Origin: Escherichia coli O157:H7
GTDB taxonomy: Bacteria > Pseudomonadota > Gammaproteobacteria > Enterobacterales > Enterobacteriaceae
Assembly: GCF_013167455.1 (NCBI RefSeq)
Contig: NZ_CP038328.1
DNA: 64,000 nucleotides
Strand: one strand, 5' to 3'
Below, in pieces: positions 15,201 through 18,200 of the stretch (position 1 is its first letter; each line of letters opens with the position of its first letter). The position numbers are program-made.

Positions 15201-18200
15201 ATCAAACTGATCCATGATCAAATGCTCAATGCCACCCTGTATTACTCCGGCTCTGGTGGCCTGGTGATGAACACGATTTCCTGTGTCGATCTGGCTCTGT
15301 GGGATCTGTTCGGCAAAGTGGTCGGGCTTCCGGTTTATAAACTTTTAGGCGGCGCTGTTCGTGATGAGATTCAGTTCTACGCCACAGGTGCGCGTCCGGA
15401 TCTGGCAAAAGAGATGGGCTTTATCGGTGGCAAAATGCCGACGCACTGGGGGCCACATGATGGCGATGCGGGGATCCGCAAAGATGCCGCTATGGTCGCG
15501 GATATGCGTGAAAAATGCGGTGAGGATTTCTGGTTAATGCTCGACTGCTGGATGAGTCAGGACGTGAACTATGCGACCAAACTGGCCCACGCTTGCGCGC
15601 CCTATAACCTGAAATGGATCGAAGAGTGCCTGCCGCCACAGCAGTATGAAGGTTATCGCGAACTGAAACGCAACGCGCCAGTCGGAATGATGGTCACCAG
15701 CGGTGAGCACCACGGCACACTGCAATCTTTTCGTACGCTTTCAGAAACCGGTATCGACATTATGCAGCCGGATGTTGGCTGGTGCGGTGGCTTAACCACG
15801 CTGGTGGAAATTGCCGCAATCGCCAAATCCAGGGGGCAACTGGTGGTGCCGCACGGTTCGTCTGTTTACTCCCACCATGCGGTGATCACCTTCACTAATA
15901 CGCCATTCAGCGAATTCCTGATGACTAGTCCGGATTGTTCAACGATGCGTCCGCAGTTTGACCCGATTCTGCTCAATGAGCCGGTTCCGGTGAATGGTCG
16001 TATTCATAAATCAGTGCTTGATAAACCCGGTTTTGGCGTCGAACTCAATCGTGACTGCAATTTGAAACGCCCCTACAGCCACTAATCACTCCGGGCGTTG
16101 CTGTGACAACGGTAACGCCCACATATTCTAAGGAGCTTTTTATGAGCACCGCTTTGCTTGACGCCGTGGTGAAGAAAAACCGTGTGCGTTTAATTCCGTT
16201 TATGTTGGCGCTGTATGTGCTGGCGTTTCTCGACCGTTCGAATATCGGTTTTGCCAAACAGACCTACCAGATTGATACCGGGTTGAGTAATGAAGCTTAT
16301 GCGCTGGGAGCAGGCATTTTCTTTGTGGTATATGCGTTTCTGGGTGTTCCGGCGAATCTTTTGATGCGCAAACTGGGGGCCAGAACCTGGATTGGTACGA
16401 CAACACTGCTGTGGGGATTTCTTTCGGCAGCCATGGCATGGGCCGATACTGAAGCGAAATTTCTGATAGTTCGCACTCTGCTTGGTGCTGCGGAGGCCGG
16501 ATTTTTCCCTGGTATGATTTATCTCACCTCGCAATGGTTTCCGCAGCGTAATCGCGCCAGCATTATGGGGCTGTTCTATATGGGCGCACCGCTGGCGTTA
16601 ACACTGGGATCACCGCTTTCCGGCGCGCTGCTGGAGATGCATGGATTTATGGGGTCATCCCGGCTGGTTCTGGATGTTTGTGATTGAAGGATTGTTGGCA
16701 GTCGGCGCTGGGGTATTCACATTCTTTTGGCTTGATGACACACCGGAGCAGGCACGTTTTCTGAGTAAACTAGAAAAAACGTTGCTTATCAATCAACTGG
16801 CAAGTGAAGAACAACAGAAAGTGACTTCTCGGCTGAGCGATGCGCTGCGTAATGGGCGAGTCTGGCAACTGGCGATTATCTACCTGACCATTCAGGTGGC
16901 GGTTTACGGATTAATTTTCTTCCTGCCGACCCAGGTTGCGGCATTGCTGGGAACAAAAGTGGGCTTTACAGCGTCGGTGGTCACCGCCATTCCGTGGGTT
17001 GCGGCCTTGTTTGGGACCTGGCTTATTCCGCGCTATTCCGATAAAACCGGCGAACGGCGTAATGTCGCAGCGCTGACATTACTGGCGGCGGGCATTGGTA
17101 TTGGTCTGTCCGGGCTGCTTTCTCCAGTACTGGCGATCGTAGCGCTGTGTGTTGCAGCCATCGGGTTTATTGCCGTGCAGCCGGTGTTCTGGACGATGCC
17201 GACACAACTGCTTTCCGGTACGGCGCTGGCTGCGGGGATTGGTTTTGTAAACCTGCTTGGTGCAGTGGGCGGGTTTATTGCCCCGATCCTGCGCGTGAAA
17301 GCAGAAACGTTATTTGCCAGCGATGCGGCGGGATTACTGACGCTGGCAGCGGTGGCGGTCATCGGTTCGCTGATTATTTTCACTCTGCGTGTAAATCGCA
17401 CCGTTGCGCAGACCGACGTGGCACATCATTAAATAGGTTAAGGAACACGATGAACGCATTATTAACCATCCCTTTAAAGAACGTTTACGCAAGGGCGAAG
17501 TGCAAATTGGTCTGTGGTTAAGCTCAACGACTGCCTATATGGCAGAAATTGCCGCTACTTCCGGTTATGACTGGTTGCTGATTGACGGGGAGCATGCGCC
17601 AAACACCATTCAGGATCTTTATCACCAGCTACAGGCGGTAGCCCCCTATGCCAGCCAACCCGTGATCCGTCCGGTGGAAGGCAGTAAACCGCTGATTAAA
17701 CAAGTCCTGGATATTGGCGCGCAAACTCTACTGATCCCGATGGTCGATACTGCCGATCAGGCACGTCAGGTGGTGTCTGCCACGCGCTATCCTCCCTACG
17801 GTGAACGTGGTGTTGGGGCCAGTGTAGCACGGGCTGCGCGCTGGGGACGCATTGAGAATTACATGGCGCAAGTCAACGATTCGCTTTGTCTGTTAGTGCA
17901 GGTGGAAAGTAAAACGGCACTGGATAACCTGGACGAGATCCTCGACGTCGAAGGGATTGATGGCGTGTTTATTGGACCTGCGGATCTTTCTGCGTCGTTG
18001 GGCTACCCGGATAACGCCGGGCACCCGGAAGTGCAGCGAATTATTGAAACCAGCATTCGGCGGATCCGTGCTGCGGGTAAAGCGGCTGGTTTTCTGGCTG
18101 TGGCTCCTGATATGGCGCAGCAATGCCTGGCGTGGGGAGCGAACTTTGTCGCTGTTGGCGTTGACACGATGCTCTACAGCGATGCCCTGGATCAACGACT

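Follow-up and report, generated by a model that had tools for sequence, protein, structure and literature searches.

The closest described counterpart of the gene analysed in this work is yfaV (b2246, RhmT) of Escherichia coli K-12, which codes for a putative L-rhamnonate transporter of the MFS class. It belongs to the yfaX-rhmD-yfaV-yfaU (rhm) operon for the utilisation of L-rhamnonate and lies in the gene order yfaX-rhmD-yfaV-yfaU-rpnE-glpC. The nearest solved structures to YfaV belong to the anion:cation symporter family, represented by DgoT (PDB 6E9N and 6E9O) and sialin. The substrate of DgoT is D-galactonate, whereas that of YfaV is presumably L-rhamnonate, as suggested by the operon context. 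In the literature library searched, no paper links yfaV with rhamnonate or with O157, and 'rhmT' returned unrelated acronyms only.

The 64,000-nucleotide stretch of E. coli O157:H7 DNA analysed here (the window) contains the men, arn, yfaZYX, rhmD, yfaV, yfaU, rpnE, glp, nrd, yfaL, gyrA, rcs and ompC genes, and has the same gene order as K-12 around yfaV. Once the reading frame is repaired, the alignment with K-12 rhmT that had been proposed in the initial annotation leaves 425 of the 429 residues identical, with 12 DNA differences in 1,290 nt. In contrast to the K-12 gene, the window copy carries an additional T at position 16655 and is split into two ORFs of 181 and 263 aa. The yfaV pseudogenes of strains ECP19-598, 17B6-2, G5295 and FRIK1989 are 100% identical to it over 1,401 nt, the insertion included, and these strains share with the window a nonsense SNP in yfaS; a SNP at window position 32955, in nrdA, is in contrast the window's own.

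The inserted base and the split reading frame

The near-identity to K-12 b2246 and the position between rhmD and yfaU identify the gene as yfaV/rhmT. The initial annotation had already taken the two ORFs overlapping at 16641-16687 (47 nt) for the halves of one MFS transporter, yfaV or rhmT, and both parts of that proposal are borne out by the ORF coordinates, by the matching orthologues in K-12 and EDL933, and by the profile TIGR00893 (NCBIfam), of whose 399 positions the N-terminal fragment covers 2-146 and the C-terminal fragment 144-398. Since these spans are complementary, the halves are complementary pieces of a single MFS permease. The designation as an L-rhamnonate transporter is accepted here as far as the MFS class is concerned; the substrate is putative and comes from operon context, the K-12 RefSeq entry reading 'putative transporter YfaV'. 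The intact gene measures 1,290 nt both in EDL933 (product WP_001302964.1) and in K-12. Deletion of a single base at the break, either T16655 or one G, restores a continuous ORF of 429 codons, as had been reconstructed from the sequence, and the resulting protein is exactly the YfaV of EDL933. The coordinates of these features are collected in Table 1.

Table 1. Positions in the window of the yfaV fragments, their neighbours and the other genes discussed
Feature	Position	Strand	Remarks
yfaX, IclR-type regulator	14083..14865	+	Intact; 17B6-2 annotation of identical sequence and ORFs
rhmD, L-rhamnonate dehydratase	14880..16085	+	Intact; 17B6-2 annotation of identical sequence and ORFs
yfaV/rhmT pseudogene	16142..17432	+	1,291 nt (1,290 nt when intact); PGAP 'yfaV, MFS transporter, frameshifted' on identical sequence
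N-terminal fragment ORF	16142..16687	+	181 aa: 171 native residues (predicted TM1-TM5) and 10 aberrant (SSRLVLDVCD); TGA 16685-16687
C-terminal fragment ORF	16641..17432	+	263 aa: 5 aberrant (MDLWG) and native residues 172-429 (predicted TM6-TM12); translation putative
GGGG run	16651..16654	+	Native, of wild-type length, not the mutated element; EDL933 and K-12 read ATGGGGCATCC
Inserted T	16655..16655	+	+1 frameshift after codon 171 (Gly, GGG); sole gap relative to EDL933 and K-12
yfaU/rhmA, 2-keto-3-deoxy-L-rhamnonate aldolase	17450..18252	+	Downstream of yfaV; 1-nt deletion uncouples K-12 start ATG 17450
yfaS, alpha-2-macroglobulin gene	45412-49926		GGA to TGA at 49330, codon 1307 of 1,504; annotated 'internal stop' in the four genomes with the same yfaV allele
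yfaQ	49927-51576		Internal stop at codon 265; pseudogene in all O157:H7 examined, including Sakai (ECs_3109)

What is the nature of the mutation? In the alignment, ATGGGGTCATCCC of the window stands opposite ATGGGGCATCCC in the intact alleles of EDL933 and K-12, which already contain four Gs. The event is thus the insertion of T16655 between GGGG and CAT, with no change in homopolymer length. The +1 frame break had been located correctly to within one base in the initial annotation, which nevertheless attributed it to the GGGG run at 16651-16654 and took reads with three Gs as the observation that would overturn it; the wild type already has GGGG followed by C, so that this test was mis-specified. 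Deleting a G repairs the gene as well as deleting the T does because GGG and GGT both code for Gly, and this synonymy is the reason why the reconstruction succeeded despite the wrong attribution. Expansion of the G run, or an error in counting it, is ruled out by the presence of the same GGGG in the wild type, and since the run is unchanged in length the implied concern about a homopolymer sequencing error does not apply. As to the origin of the added base, inspection by eye of 16630-16660 revealed no convincing quasi-palindrome or repeat that could have templated it.

The N-terminal ORF starts at ATG 16142, preceded by AAGGAG, and from this codon encodes 181 aa; the ORF listing extends it upstream to GTG 16103, and the length of 194 aa given in the initial annotation holds from that GTG but not from position 16142, which it named as the start. 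With intact orthologues in EDL933, strain 155 and K-12, and an added T that leads to a TGA ten codons later, yfaV is in the window a frameshift pseudogene. Translation from the native ATG would produce 171 correct residues and ten wrong ones before stopping at TGA 16685.

The repaired protein belongs to the Pfam family MFS_1 (PF07690), its residues 22-381 matching positions 2-347 of the 347-position model with E = 1.7e-47. TIGR00893 (2.A.1.14, D-galactonate transporter subfamily) is the best NCBIfam family, matched over its full length with 246.6 bits; since the curated cut-off of 395 bits is not reached, YfaV is a relative of this subfamily and not a member as NCBI defines it. A Kyte-Doolittle scan gave ten clear hydrophobic segments, to which inspection by eye adds two weaker ones, near residues 85-103 and 303-320, as well as a polar loop spanning 198-240. 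On the same scan the frame is lost between the fifth and the sixth segments, within the short loop that connects them (TM5-TM6). A fragment of five helices would not be able to form the 12-helix MFS fold, and the truncation after TM5 has most likely inactivated the transporter, leaving a pseudogene that serves as a lineage marker.

Occurrence and inheritance of the insertion

We surveyed 4,163 complete E. coli genomes carrying the 90-nt site around the break. Only four, ECP19-598, 17B6-2, G5295 and FRIK1989, match the window exactly there (hereafter allele A); any +1 allele at the site is found in seven, and the ~4,150 others are unshifted, with GGGG as in the wild type. The four allele A genomes come from different laboratories, and in each of them PGAP annotates 'yfaV, MFS transporter, frameshifted'. 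FRIK1989 has been typed as LSPA-6 lineage I/II. These assemblies are not error-ridden, since yfaV is the only pseudogene within the surrounding 40 kb.

The substitution of G by T at 49330 in yfaS, 32.7 kb from the insertion, occurs in exactly the same four genomes (4/4,449). A SNP in glpB at 21049 is nested within the group, being present in ECP19-598 and G5295 alone among 5,421 genomes. Because these rare, unlinked variants co-segregate perfectly with it, the T has been inherited within a clade. The window itself adds a fifth, distinct isolate to the clade: at window position 32955, in nrdA, it has an A that no genome of the collection carries, all the O157:H7 genomes compared having G; across 17500-42000, none of the 5,426 genomes in the collection matches the window exactly.

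The allele also extends beyond complete genomes. In a collection of 15 billion proteins (NCBI and Logan), 701 contigs have the exact 181-aa N-terminal fragment and 504 have the exact 263-aa C-terminal fragment of allele A, the latter including Logan assemblies of sequencing runs. At the DNA level, the insertion is present in Logan SRR9188684 and SRR9708990 and in the NCBI assembly GCA_002194605.1; two of the three loci match the window base for base along 3.8 kb. The contig of SRR9708990, which is common to 12 samples, has two extra SNPs inside yfaV, G16511A and C16664T in window coordinates. These SNPs, which define a sub-group of allele A, are consistent with a continued decay of yfaV.

Two further genes of the window deserve mention. 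yfaS is its second clade-specific pseudogene. In ECP19-598 it has, besides the shared nonsense mutation, a 1-nt deletion at the position equivalent to 48521, the annotation reading 'frameshifted; internal stop', and G5295 probably carries the same deletion, as its bit score and span are identical to those of ECP19-598. The lesion in yfaQ, found in all the O157:H7 genomes examined, is lineage-wide and for this reason older than those in yfaV and yfaS.

A second +1 allele and the alternative explanations

The three remaining +1 genomes are the UK O157 strains 644-PT8, 180-PT54 and 319, which carry a second allele at the same spot (allele B), GGGTTCAT compared with GGGGTCAT in allele A; their site reads ATGGGTTCATCCC, and the gene is likewise annotated 'frameshifted'. 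Two of them, 644-PT8 and 180-PT54, are outbreak isolates that hardly differ from each other. Allele B differs from allele A by a substitution of G by T and not by the length of the G run, and gives the same 181-aa N-terminal fragment; its C-terminal fragment is found on 247 contigs of the protein collection. The yfaS 49330T mutation is absent from allele B, as checked directly in strain 319 and as none of the three strains is among the four carriers.

Five variants within positions 1-36,697 are private to the allele B strains, and four of the five are packed in 15629-17671 (rhmD-yfaV-yfaU). At these sites K-12 has the alleles of the window, and the variants are therefore derived, also in comparison with EDL933; recombination with a K-12-like donor is thereby ruled out as the source of the cluster. 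The clustering could be due to chance, to local hypermutation or to relaxed selection. Are alleles A and B then the outcome of two events? The same yfaV dinucleotide may have been struck independently in two O157:H7 sub-lineages, considering that allele B lacks the yfaS mutation typical of allele A and that its strains show four de novo variants in 2 kb of the rhm operon. Inactivation of the L-rhamnonate operon in O157:H7 would then be driven by a local mutational hotspot or by selection, not by drift alone; we regard such a double hit as unlikely. Alternatively, a single ancestral insertion may have been followed by the G to T change, with allele B marking a sister lineage of A. Apart from the insertion, no variant in the 64-kb window is common to A and B and absent from EDL933, Sakai and TW14359, and so the window offers no SNP by which to choose between these histories.

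Our preferred explanation for allele A, a genuine and vertically inherited loss-of-function insertion of one T after codon 171 in one O157:H7 sub-lineage, is in our view very probable. It has to be weighed against the extra base being a consensus error in a gene that is really intact. Single-base indels are the commonest error in long-read assemblies, and long-read projects produced several of the complete genomes with a match (PacBio is described for the UK strains); however, the inserted T lies outside any homopolymer, and it is highly improbable that an artefact would be shared by four further complete genomes, each from another laboratory, would follow the unlinked yfaS nonsense SNP without exception and would recur in sequencing-run assemblies. 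The co-segregation and the 504 contigs with the fragment protein argue that the lesion is real and inherited, and is not an assembly error.

If the insertion is real, could the locus still encode an active permease, with TM1-5 and TM6-12 (the latter from ATG 16641) both made and assembling into a split transporter? Contiguous fragments of LacY that are cut in a loop and co-expressed can reportedly restore transport (Bibi and Kaback 1990; Zen et al. 1994), and here too the cut lies in a loop and not in a helix, the C-terminal ORF has an in-frame ATG with a weak GGAG upstream, and the 47-nt overlap would allow translational coupling. This arrangement is however recent and rare (seven of 4,163 genomes) and shows no conservation; yfaV goes on acquiring mutations in both allele A and allele B strains, the GGAG (16633-16636) is poorly spaced, just 4 nt from the ATG, and the N-terminal fragment ends in a foreign tail of ten residues, so that we consider a functional split transporter very unlikely. 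The GGGG directly 5΄ of the break might also suggest programmed ribosomal frameshifting, in which slippage restores the frame, or phase variation, in which the length of the run switches the gene, but we assign to these a negligible probability. Programmed frameshifting would need a +1 shift from GGG to GGU, inspection of 16640-16690 revealed no known +1 signal, and the shifted arrangement is absent from ~4,150 orthologous loci; for phase variation, the run has four Gs in both the wild type and allele A, and allele B differs by a G to T substitution and not in run length.

The rhm operon in O157:H7 and the meaning of the probable loss of function

A second gene of the operon, rhmA, is altered in all genomes of the O157:H7 type. 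At the 5΄ end of rhmA, downstream of yfaV, K-12 reads TTATTAAGCAATCCC, whereas the window and EDL933 read TTATTAACCATCCC, which corresponds to a 1-nt deletion five codons into the gene, together with a substitution. In consequence, the K-12 start ATG 17450 now opens an ORF of only 23 codons ending at TAA 17519-17521; PGAP uses the ATT at 17458 instead, and a canonical start comes only at GTG 17500. This 5΄ variant is common to 260 of 4,012 genomes, of O157 type. From these features, expression of the aldolase may be poor throughout O157:H7, the L-rhamnonate pathway may already be impaired in these strains, and the operon may be decaying. The later loss of the transporter may then have been cheap, and would have been tolerated, because the pathway was possibly impaired beforehand by the rhmA lesion. 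The extra SNPs in the allele A sub-group and the rhmA lesion in the 260 O157-type genomes fit a relaxed selection on the operon.

What does the loss of yfaV mean for these bacteria? We know of no consequence of it for virulence or ecology. The gene is an ordinary lineage-marker pseudogene, whose frameshifted state is already present in the RefSeq annotation of identical sequences. T16655 and the yfaS nonsense mutation together provide a clean marker of one O157:H7 sub-lineage, usable for strain typing, and the locus is one more instance of an accessory O157:H7 operon, for the catabolism of sugar acids, in which a gene has decayed. We predict that the strains carrying allele A would be unable to take up L-rhamnonate via YfaV.
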